Shown here one piece after another: positions 6,017 to 24,252 of a DNA stretch of 64,000 nucleotides. This DNA is from a virus (Duplodnaviria > Caudoviricetes), in IMG/VR virus record IMGVR_UViG_2922690425_000004, positions 1 to 64,000 of that record; one strand, written 5' to 3'. How positions within the stretch are numbered: the stretch's first letter is position 1; each line of letters opens with the position of its first letter. The notes beneath the pieces are model-generated. The model ran no database searches, was not told the origin of the DNA, and saw nothing but the letters and a program-made list of their open reading frames with translations. Made by a program: the position numbers and the translations under genes.

Positions 6017-7192
6017 TTATGTAATGGTCGCACCCTTAATTAGTGTTTTAGTTGTGTCCACAGAATGTCGAAACACTTTACCAGAGCCTACAATAGTTGA
6101 GTTCTTACTTACATATCCTTTGTGTTTTACAGTGTCAGATAAATCAATTTGAGCAGATTTATCTAGCCCATGTCTAATAAAATCATCTTCCTGAATTAAA
6201 GATAAAGATTTAACTGTTGAATAAGAAATAACTCCATACATTTCAATTTCATCAATTTCCAAATAGCTTATATCGCCATTTATCTGCTCTGTATTTAGTC
6301 TGTACTTTTTATAGTTCCCCGATTTAGAGATAGTGAAAATTTTCTTCGTTCCGCTAACCCAGTCCGTTACACTTTCTCTTTGATCTAGAAGCACCCATTG
6401 ACTGCCTGTATGTCCCTCAATAGTCCATTTCTTGGGTGCGCGAGACACACTGGCAGGCTTAATTGCATAGCTTTTGATTTCAGTTAAACTTGAAAATTCA
6501 TAACTTATCCATGCAGGCAGGGAGGCATATGAAGTCAACCATGTTCCATTTCCACCGCTAACACCATCAAACACTCTATATGGATAATTAGTCCCCCACG
6601 TACTACTAGCTTCAACTATACCACTAGGAGTATTATTGCTTGTCATTTTAGGTATTAAAGTTGTATCACTTATTACCATAGGTGCATAAGCAATATATTG
6701 ATTATCAATAGATAATAGAAATTTATCATCATATATGTACTCGTACATCTCCCAACCCGTCATGGTAATCCTAGCATGGTTTCCGCTAATACCATTTATG
6801 TTAAGTCTGTAACACTGATAAGACTGTTTATTGTCAGTCACATACTTTTTCGTTTGACTTGCTGTCCAACCTGTTTGGTTAGATTGTGTGTCAAGAACAG
6901 TCCAATTCGTATCATCATTGGAACCTTCAAACGTCCAGTTTTTTGGAGAACCCTGATACTCTGTAGAATGTGATGTTATATTGTAATTTTGTACAACAAT
7001 CGGGCTGGAGAATTTATACTTAATCCATCCTGCAATTGTGTTATTAGTTGCCCAGTAACTACCTGTTCTATCAAATGCCCTCCAAGCATCATTTGTGCTA
7101 GGATTGTATGTTGAACTAGCACTAGCCACACCTGAAGGCGTTGCTGCTGAAGTCATGGCTGGTACTGCATTGGTGCTTGAAAGATGCCCCAT
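6017..7192 (-). CDS. Tail fibre protein with two discoidin domains
   Basis: Two copies of MTS..PSG..PKxWTxEG..YRLN; shared C-terminal GKVF motif. Confidence 0.7.
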   Translation of the reverse strand: MGHLSSTNAVPAMTSAATPSGVASASSTYNPSTNDAWRAFDRTGSYWATNNTIAGWIKYKFSSPIVVQNYNITSHSTEYQGSPKNWTFEGSNDDTNWTVLDTQSNQTGWTASQTKKYVTDNKQSYQCYRLNINGISGNHARITMTGWEMYEYIYDDKFLLSIDNQYIAYAPMVISDTTLIPKMTSNNTPSGIVEASSTWGTNYPYRVFDGVSGGNGTWLTSYASLPAWISYEFSSLTEIKSYAIKPASVSRAPKKWTIEGHTGSQWVLLDQRESVTDWVSGTKKIFTISKSGNYKKYRLNTEQINGDISYLEIDEIEMYGVISYSTVKSLSLIQEDDFIRHGLDKSAQIDLSDTVKHKGYVSKNSTIVGSGKVFRHSVDTTKTLIKGATIT

Positions 7193-7207: not shown

Positions 7208-8656
7208 TTATTTAAGCGTTATACTATTTACTCTGTACCGATTCATGTCAATGACATGTGTAAATGTTTTGCCAGCACCAAAACTAACGTTTGATGACCG
7301 TACATCAATAAGTTTATTTAAACGGTTGCTTAAGTTTAGTGCACTGTCAAAGTTCATTCCGTATTTTTGAAATGACGATTCATTGCTATCTGGAATTTCA
7401 ATTAAGCTGGAGATGTTCAATAGTTCAAACATCTTTAGTTCCCCAATACTTGTGTAGTCTGTAGCTCCATTGTTTGCTGTCCAGTTGATTCTATAAGACA
7501 TAAACGCCTTAATATTATCAATTTCAAATACCTTATCAGTTGTGGGAGTACTCCAAATTTGTTTAGATTGTCTGTCTAATACTTCCCACTTCCCATCAAA
7601 TCCATTTGTGCTATCATTGGAACCTTCAAATGTCCAGTCTCTAGGTAAACGCTTATAGTAGCTACTCAGTGTTCCATTTCGAACTGCATATTGGCTTATA
7701 ATTTTAGGAGACGTAAATTTATATCCTAAGAATCCAACACCGCCCGAACTACTTGTAGAACAGTAGCCTTCATTTTCGTCAATTTGGTTGAAGGCTAAAT
7801 AAGCTTCATTGACCCCCATCGCACCTTTTGAAAAAGCCAATCCAGACGGTGCAGCATTGTTTGTCATTTTGGATATGATTGTTGAGTCTGAAATTTTTTT
7901 TGGGATAGTCGAAATGATCTTATTATTTGTTTTGAGTATTACTTTAATATACTTAAGACTTCCCCATGCATAATCGCCGTTGTATACGCCATTCGTAGTT
8001 GTTTGAGTAGTTGGATTATAATCATCATCAAAAGTTGTGACTATGTTTCCATCATCAGACGTAAAATTAATGGCTATTACACAATTAATAAAATCCCTAA
8101 CAGCAGTATCTTTACTAGAAAAAGTAGGTAGAAAAGAACAATTAATATATTCCAATTTTTTTACTGTTGCACCAGCAGAATTACCAGCAAAAATAGGGTA
8201 CGTCGTAGGAGAGTGAGGCTTGTTATCCCATACGCAATTTCTGAACGAGAGATTAATGACTGAACCATCAAAGAAATACTCATATGTTCTGCCATCATTA
8301 CCCGGTGAAGGTCTCTGTATGATAAGCCCGATAAATGTGTTAGTCTTATTCATAATGAACCCACCAGCAGTGACATTTGTCAAACTGAGGATGACGCGTT
8401 TAGCCTTATCTCTAAGTGTAATTGTCGCTATAGTGATCTCGTAATTAGCATTAAGCACTGATGTAAGTCTTGGCTCTGTATATGTTCCTTCTTTAACAAT
8501 ATAGATTAACGTTTTATCAGCAGTAACAGAAGCGACTGCTTTACTTATTGTCTTAAATGGAGAAGTAGCAGATCCAGTATTTGTATCCAAACCTGTTATT
8601 CCATCTACATATAAAACTTTAGTAAATGAATCAATAAATCCACCAAAACTAGGCAT
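7208..8656 (-). CDS. Tail fibre protein, beta-helix-like (DUF1565-like) N-terminus plus discoidin domain
   Basis: LYVDGITGLDTNTGSATSPFKTISKAV..EGTY; C-terminal PRDWTFEGSND. Confidence 0.65.
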   Translation of the reverse strand: MPSFGGFIDSFTKVLYVDGITGLDTNTGSATSPFKTISKAVASVTADKTLIYIVKEGTYTEPRLTSVLNANYEITIATITLRDKAKRVILSLTNVTAGGFIMNKTNTFIGLIIQRPSPGNDGRTYEYFFDGSVINLSFRNCVWDNKPHSPTTYPIFAGNSAGATVKKLEYINCSFLPTFSSKDTAVRDFINCVIAINFTSDDGNIVTTFDDDYNPTTQTTTNGVYNGDYAWGSLKYIKVILKTNNKIISTIPKKISDSTIISKMTNNAAPSGLAFSKGAMGVNEAYLAFNQIDENEGYCSTSSSGGVGFLGYKFTSPKIISQYAVRNGTLSSYYKRLPRDWTFEGSNDSTNGFDGKWEVLDRQSKQIWSTPTTDKVFEIDNIKAFMSYRINWTANNGATDYTSIGELKMFELLNISSLIEIPDSNESSFQKYGMNFDSALNLSNRLNKLIDVRSSNVSFGAGKTFTHVIDMNRYRVNSITLK

Positions 8657-8957: not shown

Positions 8958-9536
8958 CTAACTTTGGACACTTGACAGAGAGTCGACTTTCTTCCATGTA
9001 GATTTATCAATTGTTGTTCTATATAGTTGTCCATCTTCAGTCCAAGCCGAGTCCTTGACATAATCTAGCGTGTAATTACGTTTCATCTCTAAGTAATCAT
9101 TGGATGTATTTAGATAATCATTGGTATAGCGATCATCGTTAAACTCATCGACGGTGAAGTTAAGATTCTCAGTAGGAGAACTGAACAGCTCAATCTTGAT
9201 ACGTGCATATGTATTTGTAGGTGATTGGATAGAACCATCGGTACCAACTTCTGCATAAGGAGACCATTCGATACCATCAATTGAAGATTGCGTATAAATT
9301 TTAAATGTTGAAGTTGTACCATTAATAATTGTATTTTTTACAATCTTTTCAAAGGCTTTGATCTTATCGGCAATGTAAATCATATCTGATTGCCAAGAAC
9401 CACTTGAAGCATAAACTATCTTACCTGTGTTACTTTTCTGTAGTTCTACTAGTTGAAGCTTGCCGTCTTTATAAACAGTGTTTTCATATTTACCTTTGGA
9501 TAAATCTATTGGGATTCCAATCTCACTTATAGTCAT
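8958..9536 (-). CDS. Phage tail/baseplate protein, hypothetical
   Basis: Beta-rich; coupled to neighbouring tail genes. Confidence 0.5.
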   Translation of the reverse strand: MTISEIGIPIDLSKGKYENTVYKDGKLQLVELQKSNTGKIVYASSGSWQSDMIYIADKIKAFEKIVKNTIINGTTSTFKIYTQSSIDGIEWSPYAEVGTDGSIQSPTNTYARIKIELFSSPTENLNFTVDEFNDDRYTNDYLNTSNDYLEMKRNYTLDYVKDSAWTEDGQLYRTTIDKSTWKKVDSLSSVQS

Positions 9537-10151
9537 TTATCTCAGCTCCCAATGGATATTGCCACTCATGTTAGCTTTAAGTGGAGCACGTATCTCTTCA
9601 GAAACAATCCCATTGCAACGAATGATTAGTTTGCCATCAAGATCTTTATTGGAAGTAATCTTGATTTGGAAATACGTTATACCTCTTAATGGCATAGAGC
9701 AAATGCATTGGAAATTAATATTTGCATCTAACAACAACATTTCTTTTTTGTATCCAATGTTATATTGTTCAATTCTACTATCGAATTTCCCATGTTCTTC
9801 TCTGGTTAATAGGCTGGCATTGGATGAAGCATCTTTGTATTGAATGATGTCGTTATACAGGAAGGTTCGTCCTGTTAACTGATATTCATTTTCTTCTGTT
9901 GCGTATGAAATCATAAAACGATCACTATTAACGTTGAATATGCCGTTAGCAACATCAAAATATACTTGTGACCCTTCACCAATATATCCAAAGGCAAGTA
10001 GCTTTTCTTTATTTATAGAGTAAAAATTATTGTATTGATTAATCTGTGTGTCATATTCAGATAAAAAAGTATTATCCCAATAATCCGCTACCCAAATATA
10101 ACTCTGATGAGGGAGAGGAGAGTATCTATATTGCATGTTACCTAAAATCAT
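9537..10151 (-). CDS. Phage hypothetical protein (tail module)
   Basis: AGGAGG SD; position in the tail operon. Confidence 0.5.
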   Translation of the reverse strand: MILGNMQYRYSPLPHQSYIWVADYWDNTFLSEYDTQINQYNNFYSINKEKLLAFGYIGEGSQVYFDVANGIFNVNSDRFMISYATEENEYQLTGRTFLYNDIIQYKDASSNASLLTREEHGKFDSRIEQYNIGYKKEMLLLDANINFQCICSMPLRGITYFQIKITSNKDLDGKLIIRCNGIVSEEIRAPLKANMSGNIHWELR

Positions 10152-10167
10152 CTTGTACCTCCTAGAA

Positions 10168-10197
10168 AATAAAATGACAGGGGTTATCCCCTGTCAT
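10168..10197 (-). terminator. Intrinsic terminator after exon 2 of the intron-containing gene
   Basis: Perfect 10-bp stem ATGACAGGGG/CCCCTGTCAT followed by a T-rich tract on the minus strand. Confidence 0.8.
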
Positions 10198-10213: not shown

Positions 10214-11104
10214 TTATACGTAACGATAAGAACCTGAATACCGTCTCTTTCGAGATACTTTAACACTCAATTAAGAGTCGGAGTAGACTATACCATTATC
10301 CCATTAGGACACCCTTATTATAGTCGTTGAAGGTCTTCCTTTATAAGGAATTTCCCTGCTTGATTATTCATTGAATTCAACCCTTAGCACCGATATTCCG
10401 GCTTTTATTTCAGCATAGGTCATCTTCTTATTTTTTTCTGTCTTTCGACCACATTCACGTTTGTCGTTACCAACTGCGTTGTAGTATAAGAAGCTTTAGA
10501 ATTTTCCAGCAATTTAAAGGGTTTTCACCACATCATTACTGATATAGGGGGCTACTTAATTAACCCGTAACTTAAAGTTTTGTTTACCGCTTGAAGCATC
10601 TAATGGTACCGCGCATTGCAATGTCACTGTAGCATAATTACCTGCTGCATCTAACGGTGTACCGTTATTGGCTACACCAAGAATCTCTTTTGCTCCCGGT
10701 TTAAATGGTGTATCATAAACGGAACCATCCCAATTTTTTGTTGTGCTACCCGTTGTTCCAATGGGCTTAGATGCTATTTTACCAATCTTTGAACTATCTT
10801 GGTCAAGATCGGTTTCATTTAGAGAGTCCACTTGAGCGTGGAACCAATTGTTTTTGACTACTTCTACTACATTTCCTACGGTATCGCCTGTGCCACCTGT
10901 CATGTCTCTAGTGGTAATTGTGCAATCTTCCATTTTAGCTACATCTGTTTTGCCCGTTCCTTTTGCTGCATCGTATCGATTATTCCAAATATTAACGGTG
11001 ATGGGTGAGGATTTTGTATCTGCATCTATTACACCAAAATCTTGAGTTACAATTTCGGTTGCATGTGTAGAGTTAAACCACGTAATCACGGGTTGTTGAG
11101 CCAT
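10214..11104 (-). CDS. Phage tail/baseplate structural protein, spliced: join(11104..10563,10232..10214), 186 aa
   Basis: Exon 1 (542 nt) plus exon 2 (19 nt) is 561 nt in frame, ending QNFKLRVSYRYV*. Confidence 0.75.
10233..10562 (-). ncRNA. Group I self-splicing intron, 330 nt, no internal ORF
   Basis: Minus strand has P (AAATTGCTGGAAA), Q (AATCAAGCAGG), R (CTTCAACGACTA) and S (ATGGTATAGTCT) in order. 5' junction GGGT|TAATTAAG resembles T4 td; terminal G at 10233; the IGS pairs with both exons. Confidence 0.9.
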
Positions 11105-11116
11105 TATGTATCACTC

Positions 11117-12268
11117 CTAAGTTCTAACTGTTATTGTTACTGTTAAATTTTGAATATTAATTCCATTCTTAATTGTGTTAACTCTAAAAAGATCTCCTGC
11201 GTTAACGGTCTTTGTTTTGATTTCTACTGATTTATCATCGAAATGCTTTAGTGCTTCAAAGTGAATCTTTTTATTCAAGATACTAGTCCAAGTATTTAAA
11301 TCTCGTGTTTTTTCTATGTCTAGTTCTGTTTCTGTATCTCCATATGTACCTAAGTAAGCCTTGATTTCTACGATCTCACCGTTGAAAGGAAAGGCTGCTA
11401 ATCCAAATGGTTCTACAAATACATAAGAATCCTTGCATAACACAATAACTCGATCTTGTACTTCTAATGGAATATCATTTACTTTTTCAAGCAACGCTAC
11501 CGTCATTAACCCATCTTTATCCTTACTAACTGGCTGAAGGTTGTCTCCAAACAGGTCAATTGGAATCCAGCGATTACCATCATAGCGATATCGGATGCCA
11601 TCTTTTGTAGTTTGAACTGTCCAACCAAGTTCGGGGTGAGGGTAGGTAGCAGTCAGTTCCTGCATATCTCTAACATAAGGTTTGAAAGCAAGTTTTGTTG
11701 TTTTATATGCATCTATCGCATTGTTAGCTGCATTGTTAGCTAAATCTGCTGCCTGATTGGCATTGTCTGCTGCTTTTTCTGCTGTAGTTGTAGCAACATG
11801 AGATTGTCTAATAATTTCTTCGAGTCTTCCAATTGCCAATTGAGTGTCGTTTAGCCGTTGATATGCTTCATCTACTATATCTTGCAGGGTTTTTACGATG
11901 TCGGGATGACGTTGTACCATTGCATAGATACGTGATGCAGGTTGCATGACTAAGCCTTTACCCATATAGCGACAAAGTTTAGTTGTACCTTCTAGGGAGG
12001 GATGGACTTGGATAGCTCCAGTTTGATATTGGACAAGAAACTCATTTTCGTTTAGATAGGGTCGATTTTCAAATACTTGTTGACTAATTTCAGTCATACC
12101 TGCAATTGATACACCGTGAGCAGAAGAAGGGAGTTCAAGCAAAGTTATTAAACCATTCAATACTACAAGTGAATCAGCACGAGATTTATACGGATCTTCG
12201 GGTGTCCCTTTGCGTGTAATCATTATTACGGGGTCATTTAACTCTAAATATGTATGTAGTTCTGGCAA
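11117..12268 (-). CDS. Baseplate/fibre-anchoring protein with Ala/Asn-rich coiled coil
   Basis: AEKAADNANQAADLANNAANNA stretch; YPHPELGWTV..YRYDG..W motif; tail operon. Confidence 0.5.
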   Translation of the reverse strand: MPELHTYLELNDPVIMITRKGTPEDPYKSRADSLVVLNGLITLLELPSSAHGVSIAGMTEISQQVFENRPYLNENEFLVQYQTGAIQVHPSLEGTTKLCRYMGKGLVMQPASRIYAMVQRHPDIVKTLQDIVDEAYQRLNDTQLAIGRLEEIIRQSHVATTTAEKAADNANQAADLANNAANNAIDAYKTTKLAFKPYVRDMQELTATYPHPELGWTVQTTKDGIRYRYDGNRWIPIDLFGDNLQPVSKDKDGLMTVALLEKVNDIPLEVQDRVIVLCKDSYVFVEPFGLAAFPFNGEIVEIKAYLGTYGDTETELDIEKTRDLNTWTSILNKKIHFEALKHFDDKSVEIKTKTVNAGDLFRVNTIKNGINIQNLTVTITVRT

Positions 12269-12279
12269 TATTTCACCTC

Positions 12280-12732
12280 CTAACTTGATATATTTATCTT
12301 TTCATTTCCAGTTTCGATAGTGGTATCTGTGTCCAGCATAGTTTTCACAGGTGAACCAATCATTGCAACAGCTTTACCATTATAGAAAACCTTAGCGCTA
12401 CCTCCTGAAACTTCACCTTCACCAGAGCCGCTTTTACCGGGAGAAACTGATTTAATGCTACCTCTGGGAGCTGATGGAGTAGGGTTGGCAACCCAATGTT
12501 CAGATGTTTTATCACCAACAGTAGCTATGGGTACATTATTTATAAAAATTTTATTGTCAGAGGAAACTACGCCTTCGACATCTGCATCGGTTGAACCATG
12601 ACCTGTATACCACCTTGTTTCTTTACCGCCATCACCATCGCTGTGTCTTTCACTCCATTCATAGGAGAATTTTACATAATCATTTTTGGTAGATAATTTT
12701 GTTGTTGAACCATTCAATGCTACTCCAGCCAT
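12280..12732 (-). CDS. PAAR-like spike-tip protein
   Basis: KIFINNVPIATVGD and GSAKVFYNGKAVAMIGS PAAR-type repeats. Confidence 0.7.
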   Translation of the reverse strand: MAGVALNGSTTKLSTKNDYVKFSYEWSERHSDGDGGKETRWYTGHGSTDADVEGVVSSDNKIFINNVPIATVGDKTSEHWVANPTPSAPRGSIKSVSPGKSGSGEGEVSGGSAKVFYNGKAVAMIGSPVKTMLDTDTTIETGNEKINISS

Positions 12733-12743
12733 ATATCACACTC

Positions 12744-13382
12744 CTAAATGCGTTTATATTGATATCTCCATTTAATATCTGCGTCTCCATCGACTTTGAA
12801 TACATTTTTCCCAACAGGCAGGTTTAAATAGTTGTCGTTGAAATCTTTGTATCTATACGTAACAGCAAGTGTGGTTTCAATATCTTGGCGTTCATTGTTT
12901 ACATACACTGTTTCCCCATCGACAAGCCCAGTAAACTTGAACTGTTCGTTATGATGAGATGTATTAGTCATGGTAAAATCACCGCTACCAACTTTTGTGA
13001 TCCATATTTCAGGTTGGCAGGGGAGGTCACCTTTGTTGTGAAACACAAGTACTGGTTGAAAATGTAGGGTTATATTAGGATCAAAGAAGGGGTGAATACT
13101 GTAATCTGTCGTTTGAATGATTGCACGAATACTTAATTTGGTATTGTAGAGAGGAGTGTCTTCATTTATTTCTGGTATTTCTCCACCGTTAACGCAGTTA
13201 CGCCATTCAGACCAATTGTATCCATCATCTGATTTGCGAGACTGAACAACAATAGTTGATCCTTCAGGCTGTGTCTGATTCCACGATATTTTGCTTAATG
13301 CACCGTCTGTAACAATTGGAATAGTGACGGTAGGATATGTATAAATGCCATTTTTATTTGTGAGCGAATTCCAAGTAGCCAT
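12744..13382 (-). CDS. Distal-tail (Dit) C-terminal-like protein
   Basis: NKGDLPCQPEIWI..GETVYVNNE..YLNLPVGKNVFKV resembles the Sipho_tail C-terminal domain. Confidence 0.6.
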   Translation of the reverse strand: MATWNSLTNKNGIYTYPTVTIPIVTDGALSKISWNQTQPEGSTIVVQSRKSDDGYNWSEWRNCVNGGEIPEINEDTPLYNTKLSIRAIIQTTDYSIHPFFDPNITLHFQPVLVFHNKGDLPCQPEIWITKVGSGDFTMTNTSHHNEQFKFTGLVDGETVYVNNERQDIETTLAVTYRYKDFNDNYLNLPVGKNVFKVDGDADIKWRYQYKRI

Positions 13383-14042: not shown

Positions 14043-14663
14043 TTAGTTTGAAATTTCATACCACTTCTTCCCACGAAATTCAGTCCACATTGTCTTATTA
14101 GGATTCAAGGTGAGCTTACCGTTTTCGATTATTACTTTATTTTTCTCGCCAGTAGTATCGTTCACCTGTACATCAAAAGGTTGATAGCGCCAATTGTAAA
14201 CTGGTGGATTATAAATAGAAGAGTAAGCGTAGGGAGCATCGCATCTAAAAGTAAGAGTGACATATCCTTGTCGCACACAATTATGAACCAGATTTATATC
14301 GTCCACACAAAGAGCATAATATATTTTTTCTGGATCATCTGAGAAGAAGAGAGGTTGATAATAAGATTGTTCAGTTAGCCACTTAGCAACTCCTCTAATT
14401 TTTACATCATCCCAAGTATCCTCAAAAGCGAACGACACATTAAACTTAAGTGGTTCTTTTTTTGTTTGTTGGAAATAGGGTTTATCTCTACCCTTGATAG
14501 ATACTTCATTTATGGATCGTGAAGCAGCGAATATTTCTTCTTGCATCCCAGACGACATATTCACGTTTACGATTCCATAGAAATCAGATTGGATGCCAGC
14601 ATAAGAAAAGTAGAGAGATTCGCGTATTGTAATATTGATCACCTCCATATTTAAATTGGGCAT
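14043..14663 (-). CDS. Distal tail protein (Dit), N-terminal part
   Basis: YFSYAGIQS..KWLT..PLFFSDDPEKIYYA..GYVTLTFRCDAPYAYS. True start may be ATT at 14633. Confidence 0.75.
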   Translation of the reverse strand: MPNLNMEVINITIRESLYFSYAGIQSDFYGIVNVNMSSGMQEEIFAASRSINEVSIKGRDKPYFQQTKKEPLKFNVSFAFEDTWDDVKIRGVAKWLTEQSYYQPLFFSDDPEKIYYALCVDDINLVHNCVRQGYVTLTFRCDAPYAYSSIYNPPVYNWRYQPFDVQVNDTTGEKNKVIIENGKLTLNPNKTMWTEFRGKKWYEISN

Positions 14664-15166: not shown

Positions 15167-15305
15167 AAGAAGCATATACTAAAAAAGAGTAGAGATGCGA
15201 CATCATCTCCACTCTAAAACAACAGCCGCTTATAAGGGCGGTGGCTGTGTTAACAAAGGCGTAGAAATAGACCGTTTACCTTTGCTTAGGGCGGTCTATT
15301 TCTTA
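15167..15305 (+). ncRNA. Antisense antitoxin RNA of a type I TA locus
   Basis: TTGGCA(15132)-17-TAAAAT(15155) promoter; internal hairpins; terminator AGAAATAGACCG..CGGTCTATTTCT overlapping the toxin stop. Confidence 0.7.
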
Positions 15306-15379
15306 TTGTGGAAAGAAAGTATTAGCACAACCAAAGTCGCAAATGAAATCATAAGCGTCAATGTTTGATATACCTCCAC
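15296..15379 (-). CDS. Type I toxin, holin-like (BsrE/BsrG-type), 27 aa
   Basis: MEVYQTLTLMISFATLVVLILSFHNKK; SD AAAGGAGGTG; GTG start; convergent sRNA. Confidence 0.8.
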   Translation of the reverse strand: MEVYQTLTLMISFATLVVLILSFHNKK

Positions 15380-15494
15380 AAGCATCACCTCCTTTGCAGG
15401 AGACTAGCCGACCGCCCATCTAAGCCTTTCCGTTGTTAGAGATAGTATAATATATCTTTACGATACGATAGAACTAACAATTAACTGCATGTCA

Positions 15495-16736: not shown

Positions 16737-18278
16737 TTAAGATAGAGCAGGGGAGACAGGGACAGGTAAGATATTTAGTTGGGTGAGCTTTTCGTTTAGT
16801 ATTGATTCGATGTTGTCAAATTCGGTATACTTGATTCGTATCAATGGGATGTTATGTGACTCGCAATAGTTGTCTTTGATCTTGTCTTTCTTTTGTTGGA
16901 GCTTGAACGTTTTTATGCCACCAAAATATTCAATGGGTTCGTAGTGTTGCTTACCGTCGAATTCTATTAGACAAATAGGTTCATTGTAACCGTCAAATAT
17001 GGCAAAATCAAAGCGAAGAGCAATTTTGTGCTTACAATTAGGATTTGAATATTGCCTAATGAAATTAAGTGTACTAGAAGAAAGATAGTCTACTATTCTT
17101 GCTTCTCCTTTTTTTTCATTGATACATGGACATCTACTATCGCCTCTAATTAAGTTAGAAGGAGTAGGTCTATAAGTTCTTCCGCATGGAATATGAAGTA
17201 CATCGATTTTAGTATTTGCACCGAGATATTCCCCTATAACTTGATAGTCATCCCCAACAGTATTCAATAACTCTTCTCTAAATTCTTCTGTGGTTTTCTT
17301 TTCATTCTTGAAACAATTAGGACATCGGCTCCCATTTCTATTTTTAGTGCCAAGGAAGCTAGCAGGAGATACTAAATATTCATGTAAGCAAGTGTTATGT
17401 CTCATTTTTATTTTAATATTATTATTTAGGTATTCTCCTAGTACGGAATACTCATTTTCAACTAATGCAAATACTTCTTTTTTAAATTCATCGGTAGTCT
17501 TTTTTATTTTACCAAAGCAATGAGGACAACGTTTCCCTGCTATAAAATTCTGAGGTTCTGTAACGTACTCCTTATGGCATTCATTATGGATAAACTTTAT
17601 ATTTGTTCTAGCATTTTTGTAGTCCCCCAGAACATCATATTCACCGTGAGTCTTATCTCTGACATACTTTTTAAATGTGTCTGTTGTGTGATATTTAACA
17701 CCACCATGGCAGTGACTACACCGTGTTCCAGAGTTAAACACCGTAGGTGCCATATGGATTATGTTTCCACATGTGTTATGTTTGATTTTGACTTTCGTTT
17801 GACTATTAATAATATCATCCATTAATTCATATTCATTTCCCACTTTATCGAATATCTGCTCTTTAAAAGTGTCTGTAGTAAGAGGTATATTTTTAGCGCA
17901 CTTAGGGCATCTCTTACCAGACAAAAAGTTTGCTGGTTTCACTTCATAAATGTGACCACAATCCATATGTTTTACTTTTAATTTATGTTCATTCGTCACA
18001 TACTTTTCAAGAAAGACATAGTGTCTTCCTGTTAGTTCATACACTTCCTTTTTGAAAGTTTCATTTGTTTTTCTGTTCGATTTTTTACATATAGGGCAAC
18101 GTCTACCGTCAATAAAATGCCCTAACCTTACCTGTTGAACATTTCCACACTTATGATGTAAAACAGAAATTTTATCAAAAGCTCCGGTGTATTCACTAAC
18201 TAAACTGTATTCGGAATTTGTTATGTCTTTTATTCTTTGTGCTACAGTATCAGCACTTAATTTTTTAGCAATTTTCAA
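16737..18278 (-). CDS. Zinc-finger-repeat endonuclease: six ~63-aa HxxC..RCxxC-type repeats plus a C-terminal Vsr/DUF559-like PD-(D/E)XK domain
   Basis: Repeats visible; FDFAI..IEFDGKQHY..DKIK..LIRI. Promoter TTTACA-17-TATAAT (18344-18316) puts the start downstream of the track's 18350. Confidence 0.7.
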   Translation of the reverse strand: MKIAKKLSADTVAQRIKDITNSEYSLVSEYTGAFDKISVLHHKCGNVQQVRLGHFIDGRRCPICKKSNRKTNETFKKEVYELTGRHYVFLEKYVTNEHKLKVKHMDCGHIYEVKPANFLSGKRCPKCAKNIPLTTDTFKEQIFDKVGNEYELMDDIINSQTKVKIKHNTCGNIIHMAPTVFNSGTRCSHCHGGVKYHTTDTFKKYVRDKTHGEYDVLGDYKNARTNIKFIHNECHKEYVTEPQNFIAGKRCPHCFGKIKKTTDEFKKEVFALVENEYSVLGEYLNNNIKIKMRHNTCLHEYLVSPASFLGTKNRNGSRCPNCFKNEKKTTEEFREELLNTVGDDYQVIGEYLGANTKIDVLHIPCGRTYRPTPSNLIRGDSRCPCINEKKGEARIVDYLSSSTLNFIRQYSNPNCKHKIALRFDFAIFDGYNEPICLIEFDGKQHYEPIEYFGGIKTFKLQQKKDKIKDNYCESHNIPLIRIKYTEFDNIESILNEKLTQLNILPVPVSPALS

Positions 18279-18421
18279 CGCCTCCATCCGAACTTCAATA
18301 ATATCGAATAATGATATTATATTACGCCTAGTGTAATTTGTAAACCGCACTAAAGCAATTTTCTATCTTGCTGACTAAACTCTGTGTTAATATGGAACTA
18401 GAAACCTGAGGAGGATATTTA

Positions 18422-20796: not shown

Positions 20797-23700
20797 TTAC
20801 ATGAAGTCGTAGCGAGTACCGTTGAAGGTGATTTTGCCATCAGCAGAGAGAACGATGGAGGCTTTACCGTTGGAGATTTTTATTTCATTTTGGTTGCTTA
20901 TTATTGATACCTGATTTGCTTTTGCGATAAAATTCCCGCCATCACTGTTTATAACAATACCTAAATCTTGTAAACTTACACTTCTTTCTTTTCCGGTGTT
21001 GCTTGCTCCATACAAAAAATCAAAAGAACCATTAGGTTTATTTATAAAACCTTTGCCGCTTTTCTCAGTTGCTCCATCACCAATACCCATTTGGATATAT
21101 GGAGTTGCAGCATCGCCAGAACCATCAAATGAAAACTTAGCTTTTACTTTTTCTTCCATACTATATTCCAAGACGGGCCATTCAGTTTCATCTACAGTCA
21201 TTTCTCCAGATTGAGTTGAGTTTTTCCAATACAAAGCTCTGCCATCAGCCAATTTCTTTTGTGTGCCAGCACCATTGACTTTCCCAGTGATCCATTTTGC
21301 TTCGTTACTTTCTATTCGAATGTAGTTCGACCAATCAGTAAGAGCAGCATTTGTTAAAGTCGATAGTTTACCCGCTACAAGCGAGCTTACAAAGCCCTCT
21401 GTGGCTGTAACTATATTAGCTGCCAGTAATTGAGTATCAATCATCCCAGCTCCAATCAAATCCCACCCATTGAGGTCGAATTTGCCGTTTCCAGTGTCGG
21501 CAAGAAATCTACCATCAGGCTTGGTGAGCAACACATTCTTGAATCTGGCACGACCGTCCATGTAGATCGCCGCTGGCGCACTGTCTTGCTGGAGACCGCC
21601 TACCCGAAATCCCGATGAATCCAATACGATTACTCTGTTTCCTCCACCAACTATTACCTGACCATCTTGGAATACTCCACCTTTTGCATACATTACACCG
21701 TCTGGCGACACTCGGAACGGGGAATCCGAGAACTGCTCTGATCCCAAGTAGATACCCTGCATATCGGCAGAAAATACATAATTACCTTTACCTATACGAA
21801 TTGATCCATCAGCAATAATACTATCACTAATTCTCAAATTTTGAGCATTTAACAATCCATCCAAACTAGTCCACAATGTTTTTTTATATGTTGTTCCACT
21901 TTTCTGGTCAATAAAGAAACCTGAATCACTATCAATTCCTACATGATTAATTACACTAGTATTGCCACAATCAGTAGAAGCGTAATGATTAAATCGTAAC
22001 CCAAACTTATCTGGATTTTCTTCCAATAGCCCAAGCTTAACGACTTCACGTTTACATCTATCCTGAATGGTTAGTTTAGAGCCTTCGATAGTGAATACAC
22101 CAGTTGTATCACCAATTACTACACGTTCACCAAGGATAATTTTTCCAAGCACTTGTTCTGCAATCAATCCATCGGCGCTGAGGGCTGTCTCGAATTTTTG
22201 CCCTCCTGAGCGTGTAAGACCAATCGCCCCCGACGTCATTTTAAGGTATCTCATGGGATTTTTTTCATCATAAACAGTGATGCCAGTGTGATCCAGTGTA
22301 ACTGTTTCATTAATCGCCATCTCTAAACGCTCTTTTTCTCTATTCCAGACATTTTCAAACAGCTTATTCATTTCACTTGAATCAAACACTGCTTTATCAT
22401 ATTTGAACTTATTTAGATCCAACGTAACTCCATGAGTCCGTACATCTTGAAACAACTTATCAAATTCATTGCCCATTCTACTTACATCTTTTACATTAGA
22501 TATCGTCAGACTAATATTCGACTGTTCATAATCATATTCAATCTTAATTATTCTTGCCGTAACATCTACGCCAGTTGGCTCATATTTGATGTTAACGAAA
22601 TCACCAAGATTCATCTTCTTCCAATCATATTGTGCTTCAATTATCTCTAAGAAGTTAACAATATCGATCTCCATGCTAAGTTGTGGACGTAGCAATTCTT
22701 TGAACTTCTTCATTGTTTCATCGTACAAATCTTGCTCATCTATGTATTTACTGTCTGAGTAGTCCTGCGTAATAATATATGAGTCGCTTAACTCCATCAT
22801 TTGCTCATGTGTAAAGTTCTTATCATATGCAAATGTACTTCTCAGGTTGCTTATCTTGTTGGAAACAGTAGTCAAATTAGCTTTAACAGCATCAATTTCA
22901 GCTTGTTTCTGTTTAATCTGCATTTCCTTATTATCTAAACTGTATCGCTCAATAATCTTTGAATCAGTGCCAGAATCATACTCATCTATGCTAATGTTAC
23001 ATACCTGAATGTATACACCCGTATTGCCACCGCTAATAGAGACATTGACATGATCCTGATATCGAACCTTACCCAGAAGTCTCCATTGATTAGAAGAAAC
23101 GGCTTTATTCGATCTATCTAAACTAACTGTAACACCAGTTGTGTCATCAACCTTAATCATAACCGCATAACCAAAATCAGAAGACAATTTGAAGCTACGT
23201 GAACTGCTACCAGAATGCTCATACTTCTCAAAAAACATCTTCAAATCAAATTGTTGAGATATTTTCGTATCTGCAACTACAACTTCATTTTTTACTAGCT
23301 TATCCATATCAACTTCAAGAAGAGCTAGTTGCTTTTCATAGCCTTGTTGTTCCTTGAGGTATGCATTAAACTCTGTTTTCTTTGATTCAATTAATGCTTC
23401 AAAGTCGAGTAGGGCATGACACAACGAATCACTCATGTAATCACTGTGTCTAATGACATTCCGATTAGCATCCCGTTCAAATGGATACATGAAATATTGA
23501 AAGCTTTCTACATAGTTTTGCCCAGTAGGATTTACTTTTTCAAATGTCATGTCATCCTGACCAAACCCCTTTAACCTTGTGACTATAGGTTCAGAGGTTG
23601 AATGTCTAGTCATCGATTTTAAATACTTATTCCAACTAAAGGTCAATCCTTTATTTGTACCAGTCAGTTCAGGTTTTTGTAATGAAATGGTGTTTTTATC

Positions 23701-24252
23701 AGTATTGAAAATCGTTATAGCATTGTATGTTTCACCAACTGTCAAAATCGCATCTAATACATTTGTACTTGAGAAGTCAAATGCCCTATAAGTTAATTTG
23801 AAATCAGCATCAATGTAGTCGATTTTCCAAGTTGTTGGTGCAAGAATTTCATTCAATATTTGTTCGGCATGATACGATTCTACAGTCAATCCCCGTATTG
23901 CAAAACCAACTAGAAGACCAGCGGTAGAAATACAATTCAACGTACGAATATCGGATTCATCTGAACTAGAATCTTCAATGCTTTTAATATAGTACCAATC
24001 AACATTATTCCCATTTACGACTTTAATTAGATATCTTTCTCGAATTAGACCGATGTTTTTATTCGGTACTAAGCGATGATTGACATCGATGTAAAAGGGG
24101 ATTGATAACTCTAATTCATTAATATCGTGCCATGTGGTAGAAATTTCATCATTAAACGCCTCACTTATTTTGCTTATGATTGTCCTATCTGGTCTACATA
24201 AGAAATATTGAGGTTGAATAGGTTTTAAATTGTAATCAATTTCTCCCAGCAA
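20797..24252 (-). CDS. Tail spike/hub protein (Tal, prophage-tail endopeptidase-like) with C-terminal beta-helix
   Basis: Follows the tape measure; TRLKGFG..GQNYVESFQYF; coiled coil; gp5-like beta-repeats at the C-terminus. Confidence 0.75.
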   Translation of the reverse strand: MLGEIDYNLKPIQPQYFLCRPDRTIISKISEAFNDEISTTWHDINELELSIPFYIDVNHRLVPNKNIGLIRERYLIKVVNGNNVDWYYIKSIEDSSSDESDIRTLNCISTAGLLVGFAIRGLTVESYHAEQILNEILAPTTWKIDYIDADFKLTYRAFDFSSTNVLDAILTVGETYNAITIFNTDKNTISLQKPELTGTNKGLTFSWNKYLKSMTRHSTSEPIVTRLKGFGQDDMTFEKVNPTGQNYVESFQYFMYPFERDANRNVIRHSDYMSDSLCHALLDFEALIESKKTEFNAYLKEQQGYEKQLALLEVDMDKLVKNEVVVADTKISQQFDLKMFFEKYEHSGSSSRSFKLSSDFGYAVMIKVDDTTGVTVSLDRSNKAVSSNQWRLLGKVRYQDHVNVSISGGNTGVYIQVCNISIDEYDSGTDSKIIERYSLDNKEMQIKQKQAEIDAVKANLTTVSNKISNLRSTFAYDKNFTHEQMMELSDSYIITQDYSDSKYIDEQDLYDETMKKFKELLRPQLSMEIDIVNFLEIIEAQYDWKKMNLGDFVNIKYEPTGVDVTARIIKIEYDYEQSNISLTISNVKDVSRMGNEFDKLFQDVRTHGVTLDLNKFKYDKAVFDSSEMNKLFENVWNREKERLEMAINETVTLDHTGITVYDEKNPMRYLKMTSGAIGLTRSGGQKFETALSADGLIAEQVLGKIILGERVVIGDTTGVFTIEGSKLTIQDRCKREVVKLGLLEENPDKFGLRFNHYASTDCGNTSVINHVGIDSDSGFFIDQKSGTTYKKTLWTSLDGLLNAQNLRISDSIIADGSIRIGKGNYVFSADMQGIYLGSEQFSDSPFRVSPDGVMYAKGGVFQDGQVIVGGGNRVIVLDSSGFRVGGLQQDSAPAAIYMDGRARFKNVLLTKPDGRFLADTGNGKFDLNGWDLIGAGMIDTQLLAANIVTATEGFVSSLVAGKLSTLTNAALTDWSNYIRIESNEAKWITGKVNGAGTQKKLADGRALYWKNSTQSGEMTVDETEWPVLEYSMEEKVKAKFSFDGSGDAATPYIQMGIGDGATEKSGKGFINKPNGSFDFLYGASNTGKERSVSLQDLGIVINSDGGNFIAKANQVSIISNQNEIKISNGKASIVLSADGKITFNGTRYDFM

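Follow-up and report, generated by a model that had tools for sequence, protein, structure and literature searches.

In 1999, Landthaler and Shub reportedly found several ORF-less group I introns of subgroup IA2, with short exons, in orf142, the tail-tube gene of the Staphylococcus phage Twort. In prophages of the Bacillus cereus group, such introns interrupt genes for the tape measure (TMP-IVS1/2/3), the large terminase and the tail tube (Tourasse and Kolsto 2008, PMC2504315), and a 265-bp intron in a minor tail gene of the mycobacteriophages BAKA and Optimus was shown by RT-PCR to be spliced (Pope et al. 2013, PMC3706429). Phage tail genes with introns of this kind are thus already on record (PMC2504315, PMC3706429), and these tape-measure, tail-tube and minor-tail cases make outdated the premise of a preliminary description of the present locus, that such introns are unusual in tail genes. 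Group I introns of bacteria and phages generally have an early stop codon within P1/P2 (PMC2504315). The T4 nrdB intron, whose endonuclease I-TevIII is defunct, is reported to be mobilised in trans by the free-standing MobE (PMC2790892).

Here we describe a 330-nt ORF-less group I intron that interrupts a tail-module gene near its 3' end. The gene belongs to a large SPbeta-like Paenibacillus prophage, a 160,162-nt provirus (IMG/VR record IMGVR_UViG_2922690425_000004) of which positions 1 to 64,000 form the window, that is, the whole 64,000-nt stretch of DNA analysed. With the introns reported for Twort orf142 it shares the lack of an ORF, a place among tail genes and a short exon; in Twort there are several introns in one gene, they are IA2 and the host gene is another. 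Closest by sequence are introns that interrupt ribonucleotide reductase in Kochikohdavirus phages of Enterococcus (phiEF17H and relatives; 73.6% identity over 87% of the intron) and the PolIII-alpha gene of Lactococcus phage AM1 (77.6% over 64%), found by nhmmer with our intron profile at E 1e-54 and 2e-46, respectively. These share the lack of an ORF, the core and the large P5 arm with the Paenibacillus intron but lie in DNA-metabolism genes of virulent myoviruses and have other P1 guides and target sites.

With the B. cereus-group introns the present one shares a place in the virion/tail genes of prophages of spore-forming Firmicutes, within the most conserved stretch of the gene, as well as an early stop in P1/P2, a patchy distribution and a guide sequence adapted to its site (PMC2504315); it differs in its gene family (phrog_11814), in its host genus Paenibacillus and in its extreme position, which leaves a last exon of 19 nt. 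The BAKA/Optimus intron is likewise small, lies in a tail gene and was recognised against intron-less relatives, but its hosts are high-GC Actinobacteria, its sequence is unrelated and it is not at the 3' end of its gene; an endonuclease ORF is reported there only for a related capsid intron (PMC3706429). The T4 nrdB/MobE pair, as reported, resembles our locus in that an intron lacking a functional endonuclease is accompanied by a nearby free-standing endonuclease gene that could drive its inheritance, and is unlike it in that here there is an association only (three of seven assessable relatives) and the nuclease is of another type, with zinc ribbons and DUF2726 (PMC2790892).

Host gene and tail module

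The intron-bearing gene and its neighbours are listed in the direction in which they are read.

20797-24252, minus strand: YomG-like tail protein (PF24049, Prophage_tail)
Between the YomG-like gene and the Dit-like genes, minus strand: block of accessory genes (gene order)
14043-14663 and 12744-13382, minus strand: Dit-like proteins (gene order; one Dit-like C-terminal-domain protein adjoins the PAAR gene)
12280-12732, minus strand: PAAR-motif protein, between the Dit-like C-terminal-domain and YomF-like proteins (PF05488, 36 bits)
11117..12268, minus strand: YomF-like protein, 383 aa, the upstream neighbour (phrog_11315; PF27067 YomF_N on orthologues in relatives L002-L008)
10563..11104, minus strand: 5' exon, codons 1-180 plus two bases of Val181, ATG at 11104, ending GGGU (ORF list, PHROG match)
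10562..10233, minus strand: group I intron, ORF-less, 330 nt (Rfam match, same-site homologues, RNAalifold and covariation)
10232..10214, minus strand: 3' exon, 19 nt, U UCU UAU CGU UAC GUA UAA (sequence, seven other alleles and intron-less homologues)
10164..10197, minus strand: terminator-like hairpin (10197..10174; 10-bp stem with six GC pairs) and T run, between the 3' exon and the start of the next gene at 10151
9537..10151, minus strand: downstream neighbour, 204 aa, phrog_11178 (PHROG match)
8958-9536, 7208-8656 and 6017-7192, minus strand: tail-fibre-like proteins, beyond the 204-aa neighbour

The YomF-like gene marks this region as an SPbeta-type tail/baseplate module. Proteins with PAAR motifs are more familiar as spikes of type VI secretion systems and of contractile tails. 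The terminator after the 3' exon, which the preliminary description had also reported, is present as the hairpin and T run listed above; in L002 the intron-less gene has a similar hairpin behind it, so the terminator belongs to the operon and not to the intron. Within the same tail-gene region of this Paenibacillus SPbeta-like provirus, 15190-15438 on the minus strand matches BsrG in Rfam at 74 bits (gathering threshold 55); BsrG is a type I toxin RNA known from the SPbeta prophage of Bacillus subtilis.

The host protein is a member of phrog_11814 (E 2.9e-57). Read without splicing, the ORF runs from 11104 to a stop at 10556 and yields a product that ends ...FKLRVN* and covers profile positions 3-169 of 174; because the alignment stops at 169, the last five profile positions are missing unless splicing takes place. 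The intron sits five codons before the end of the gene, and the 3' exon finishes Val181 and adds SYRYV and a stop codon, so that the ligated exons encode a 186-aa product with the C-terminus NFKLRVSYRYV*. The two alternative ends first proposed for this gene, ..LRVN* unspliced and ..LRVSYRYV* spliced, are both reproduced from the sequence, and the accompanying claim that splicing alters only the last residues holds, the change being a five-residue SYRYV addition after Val181. The AlphaFold model of a 92%-identical intron-less homologue, P0002, is an all-beta sandwich (pLDDT 95.3, pTM 0.89) whose last predicted beta-strand spans residues 178-185. Since the junction falls after the second base of Val181, the intron would cut this strand in half and splicing would supply S182-V186, the C-terminal half. 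On the predicted model, the earlier proposal that splicing supplies a final beta-strand holds for this C-terminal half.

Searches with the host protein returned no Pfam match, only weak pilin, TasA and GH123 N-domain matches in a Foldseek comparison with the PDB (E of at least 3.5e-3), only generic Ig/PapD-like matches with VIA-align (Z of at most 6.7, a range that the tool calls common), only uncharacterised phage proteins in BFVD (Bacillus phage SP-15, phage G) and, by tblastn in isolated phages, homologues that are all annotated 'hypothetical protein'. As fold and homology searches gave only generic or uncharacterised matches, 'tail gene', the term used in the preliminary description, is a statement about context: the gene does lie within the tail/baseplate module, and its product is an uncharacterised beta-sandwich of that module, labelled from its neighbours.

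Intron identity and fold

Rfam family RF00028 (group I intron) matches 10265-10571 on the minus strand at 59.2 bits (E 1.8e-12; gathering score 50 bits) over the full model, 1-253, with the P, Q, R and S blocks aligned, and this is the one RF00028 hit in the whole 160,162-nt provirus record. The match ends at P9. The true 3' end lies 32 nt beyond, past the P9.0/P9.1 junction, and the last intron base is a G (10233), the omega G. Placing the 3' splice site one base earlier, after the G at 10234, would destroy the SYRYV frame and was rejected for that reason. At the other boundary the 5' exon ends in GGGU (10566..10563), and P1 consists of GGGUUA with UAGCCC, in which the exon GGGU pairs with the guide GCCC and a U.G wobble marks the splice site. 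The main internal elements are as follows.

10556..10558, minus strand: in-frame UAA at intron nt 5-7, in the P1 loop, which halts unspliced translation after ..LRVN
10554..10549, minus strand: P1 guide strand, UAGCCC (sequence reading)
10522..10517 with 10316..10311, minus strand: P3 (hand-built structure)
10325..10319 with 10292..10286, minus strand: P7 (hand-built structure)

In the RNAalifold structure the P5 arm is large and branched (~150 nt). An ATG-led frame in this arm was considered as a peptide gene and rejected: it has 19 codons, is without a Shine-Dalgarno sequence, and its conservation tracks a covarying helix. No ORF longer than 30 aa was found inside 10233-10562, the longest being 30 aa, so the intron does not count among those that encode a homing endonuclease. 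The minimum free energy of the single intron sequence (-71.8 kcal/mol, z -1.36) is not better than that of shuffles; with the z-score by itself unremarkable, support for the intron comes from the covariance model and from covariation.

Group I introns can be allosteric, as in the c-di-GMP-II riboswitch-ribozyme of Clostridioides difficile, which has an adjacent sensor aptamer. A search of the window with Rfam at gathering thresholds found no riboswitch or other sensor RNA, the sole other hit being the BsrG-like RNA 4.6 kb off; with no sensor aptamer adjacent, the intron does not qualify as ligand-controlled. Introns of subgroup IA2 (the T4 td and Twort type) are said, following Michel and Westhof in 1990, to be defined by P7.1/P7.2 hairpins between the P7 5' strand and the P3 3' strand. 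This insert is absent here, 2 nt separating the two strands and the additional RNA lying in the P5 arm instead, and we assign no subgroup; the B. cereus-group introns are reported as IA1/IA2 (PMC2504315).

Comparative evidence for splicing

We collected 66 homologues of the host protein, all from Paenibacillus genomes, their prophages or metagenomes. The C-terminus ...R[VI]SYR[YF]V is present in ~50 of the 66 and is among the best-conserved parts of the family; the closest homologue, intron-less, 186 aa long and 92% identical, ends FKLRVSYRYV, in keeping with the expectation, set out beforehand, that intron-less homologues should end in an RVSYRY-like sequence. Eight homologues end in RVN or RIN plus unrelated tails. 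Other homologues (P0064-P0066 and L047:3001-3533, e.g. from Paenibacillus sp. PCH8) shift frame midway and end ..PLMQHHLLRE*; these are probably frameshifted pseudogenes in decaying prophages.

For the comparison of intron alleles, the loci of seven of the eight homologues with RVN or RIN ends were fetched (L003-L009) and joined with that of the window, giving eight. In all seven, this site is occupied, in the same codon phase, by a homologous intron with a length of 327-348 nt. The omega G is the last intron base in 8/8 alleles and is followed directly by an in-frame xSYR[YF][VI]* mini-exon that varies synonymously (Ser as TCT, AGT or TCA; Arg as CGT, CGC or AGA). This frame is read only after splicing, and its conservation is therefore indirect evidence that splicing takes place in vivo. 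The alleles score unevenly against RF00028, with L006 (66.3) and L009 (51.6) above 50 bits, L007 (46.4) and L008 (43.7) below, and the L003-L005 introns not reported by that search. A pattern scan of the viral contigs of IMG/VR brought up two further proviruses, L050 and L051, with the same intron at this site and phase, again ending in G before the in-frame mini-exon; the L051 intron is almost identical to that of the window. The same scan turned up a different group I intron, at L052:1700-3300 in a 130-kb provirus. It lies after CAGGGT, begins with a similar P1/P2 (guide GCCCCC) and has an apparent internal ORF preceded by GGAG; the remainder is unrelated, nhmmer matching only ~75 nt.

The alignment of the eight introns gave P1, P2, P4-P6, P7, P8 and P9.0/9.1 in RNAalifold, which placed the P3 bases in spurious pairs with the 3' end. 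Because RNAalifold cannot draw the P3/P7 pseudoknot, the structure was rebuilt by hand with P3 as a pseudoknot and the pairs were counted on that model. Standard pairs fill 96.6% of the pair cells across the eight alleles, and compensatory changes occur in 44 of 90 pairs, compared with 5-8 when the partners are slid by 1-3 columns; none of 500 shuffles reached the observed score. Covarying pairs are found in the core helices, with 3/6 in P3, 3/7 in P7 and 4/5 in P8. P1 itself shows a compensatory change, as the L008 exon ends in GGAU (an Ile codon, not Val) and its guide reads GUCC. The first base of the 3' exon, a synonymous codon position, and the guide base beside the wobble G form U:A in five alleles and C:G in three, and this covariation supports the first P10 pair.

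The guide pairs with the last two bases of an Arg codon, and this codon is NGG (CGG or AGG) in all eight intron alleles versus 4/36 intron-less ones, in which CGT and CGC dominate (hypergeometric p ~3e-6). Selection for P1 or co-conversion from a donor could account for this bias.

Taken as a whole, the preliminary description of the element is confirmed: a 330-nt group I intron with P, Q, R and S motifs is recovered with the same boundaries and aligned blocks, the Rfam Intron_gpI search that it proposed clears the cut-off, and the intron is ORF-less as stated. The pairing of exon GGGU with intron GCCC through a U.G wobble is likewise seen, with U.G in 8/8 alleles and the compensatory change in L008. 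Its six-pair P10 (UUCUUA with UAAGUA) survives in part, since five of the six pairs form and the first covaries, whereas the remaining pairs are not conserved.

Distribution of the intron

We placed the presence of the intron on a FastTree phylogeny of 61 host proteins from which the C-terminal residues had been left out. Eight changes are needed for the eight intron-bearing rows, no fewer than with shuffled labels, and at least five of these gains or losses are forced by well-supported branches. The nearest relative of each intron allele is intron-less, and none of 36 loci in species-representative genomes that carry the gene has the intron. Pairwise identity ranges from 61 to 88% between introns (mean 74%) and averages 66% between exons, and intron identity tracks exon identity (r 0.72), which argues for long residence in this gene family. 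Such a pattern would fit repeated precise loss, repeated gain among relatives, or both.

A nuclease gene as possible mobility partner

Genes for endonuclease-like proteins occur in the window and beside several of the intron-bearing alleles.

16737..18350, minus strand: free-standing homing-endonuclease-like gene of the window, 537 aa (zinc-ribbon repeats plus C-terminal DUF2726 nuclease domain)
L003:3953-5164, L008:3944-5056 and L009:2100-2576: endonuclease-like gene directly behind the last exon and terminator (zinc-ribbon/CapR/DUF4379 repeats plus DUF2726)

The 537-aa protein matches Pfam DUF2726 at 31.3 bits and, among PHROG families, phrog_559 ('HNH endonuclease', E 2.8e-121) and phrog_9084 ('homing endonuclease', E 1.5e-24); a PDB sequence search with it found no relative. 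Its gene lies ~6 kb upstream of the intron, in the accessory-gene block between the YomG-like and Dit-like genes, and its sequence is 36% identical to the ORF directly behind the intron-bearing gene in L003. The products of the adjoining genes are 370-403 aa long in L003 and L008, with a 158-aa called ORF near the contig end in L009, and these genes match families annotated as HNH, homing or intron-encoded endonucleases, phrog_559 and phrog_9084 among them, with E down to 1e-92. Such a gene adjoins the intron gene (within 3 kb) in 3/7 assessable relatives versus 0/37 intron-less loci (p ~0.003).

It is conceivable, though we regard it as somewhat unlikely, that a free-standing zinc-ribbon plus DUF2726 homing endonuclease of a new type drives the spread of the ORF-less intron in trans, for which it would cut intron-less alleles near the RVSYRYV codons; this would be compatible with a selfish intron. 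The nuclease gene immediately after the 3' exon in L003, L008 and L009 and at none of the 37 intron-less loci, the 36%-identical homologue within the window (16737-18350) and the strong PHROG matches to HNH, homing or intron-encoded endonuclease families all point this way, and trans-homing by T4 mobE of an intron with a defunct endonuclease is a reported precedent (PMC2790892). Against this, the window copy sits 6 kb away in the accessory block. In L004 the best that is seen is a weak CapR-type match (E 8e-9), located upstream of its YomF-like gene, and in L005, L006 and L051 the intron has no neighbour of this type. The sample is small and what it provides is an association; nuclease genes of this kind are also reported to be common at phage recombination boundaries anyway (PMC10448857). 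For the window, any link between the 537-aa nuclease gene and the intron would be hypothetical.

Discussion

The most reasonable explanation of these data, and one that we hold with considerable confidence from sequence comparison, is that the locus carries an ORF-less group I intron that is competent to splice and has long persisted, as a selfish element, at one conserved site of a tail-module gene family in SPbeta-like Paenibacillus prophages. The intron is almost certainly functional in splicing, as judged from its structure and its alleles. Its current mobility is putative; long vertical residence with repeated precise losses would fit the data as well as repeated gains do.

We propose the following course of events. 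The late tail transcript, from the minus strand, would run through the gene and the intron would fold, its guide GCCC pairing with the exon end GGGU to give P1, U.G wobble included. Cleavage after U10563 would then be the work of a free guanosine bound in P7; the 19-nt last exon would pair with the guide through its first bases (P10), the terminal G (10233) would enter the G site, and the exons would be ligated, to read ...CGG GU joined to U UCU UAU CGU UAC GUA UAA (junction CGGGT followed by TTCTTATCG). The spliced mRNA would be translated into the 186-residue protein, in which SYRYV would finish the last beta-strand, as in all relatives that lack the intron. On unspliced RNA, ribosomes would halt at the UAA in the P1 loop and so be kept out of the catalytic core; the resulting 182-residue product would most likely be a non-functional by-product. 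Between related prophages the intron may be gained or lost by recombination, possibly with a free-standing homing endonuclease acting in trans.

The preliminary description had suggested that splicing gates tail assembly or gives two isoforms. On this account the rate of splicing would set the ratio of the 182-aa (LRVN) to the 186-aa (SYRYV) product, thereby gating tail/baseplate assembly or providing two functional isoforms, which we consider very improbable; the same low probability attaches to a regulatory variant in which slow or condition-dependent splicing would deliver the LRVN subunit early and the SYRYV subunit later, timing or limiting baseplate/tail-tip assembly. Because the intron halves the last predicted beta-strand (178-185), the two products would differ structurally in the model, and since transcription and translation are coupled, a certain amount of truncated protein probably arises. 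The unspliced tails, however, differ from allele to allele, with lengths of 1-20 residues (N*, NC*, NLDSPLYQ*), and mirror the RNA helices P1-P3 with no protein constraint, while very close relatives that lack the intron have the same C-terminus. No sensor RNA is adjacent, and the intron is scattered on the host-protein tree as a selfish element would be, a pattern typical of selfish phage introns (PMC2504315). The variable, unconserved tails, the intron-less kin, the lack of a sensor RNA and the scattered distribution together argue against a selected second isoform or gate, and we do not retain the earlier suggestion.

Least probable of all is a decayed relic that has lost splicing, the gene now ending at LRVN* and the SYRYV frame being a leftover: the intron holds no endonuclease gene and its Rfam score is just 9 bits over the cut-off, with four of the seven related alleles below it, but the core helices are maintained by compensatory changes, the terminal G, the wobble pair and the 19-nt exon frame persist in 8/8 alleles despite 61-88% intron identity, and the C-terminal motif remains among the best-conserved parts of the family.

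The splicing-competent selfish intron that we favour leaves the known mode of group I intron action unchanged and is an ordinary selfish phage element. Its value is foremost one of annotation, as gene callers misplace the C-termini of this protein family at every intron-bearing locus. For this reason at least eight clusters of public proteins have wrong C-termini (P0007, P0012, P0017, P0024, P0031, P0044, P0047 and P0050), ending in RVN or RIN plus up to 20 intron-encoded residues instead of the correct SYR[YF][VI]; for P0047 this follows from the tail alone, for the other seven from DNA. The locus also extends the range of an intron lineage whose closest members by sequence, likewise ORF-less, split ribonucleotide reductase in Enterococcus phages and PolIII-alpha in a Lactococcus phage: otherwise found in nucleotide-metabolism genes of virulent Firmicutes phages, the lineage here occupies one tail-module site in temperate SPbeta-like Paenibacillus phages. 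Its comparative splicing signals are unusually clean, comprising the 19-nt exon frame, the compensatory change in P1 and the codon bias at the guide site. Finally, if the nuclease association holds, these prophages would provide a natural series for how ORF-less introns and free-standing endonucleases come together.
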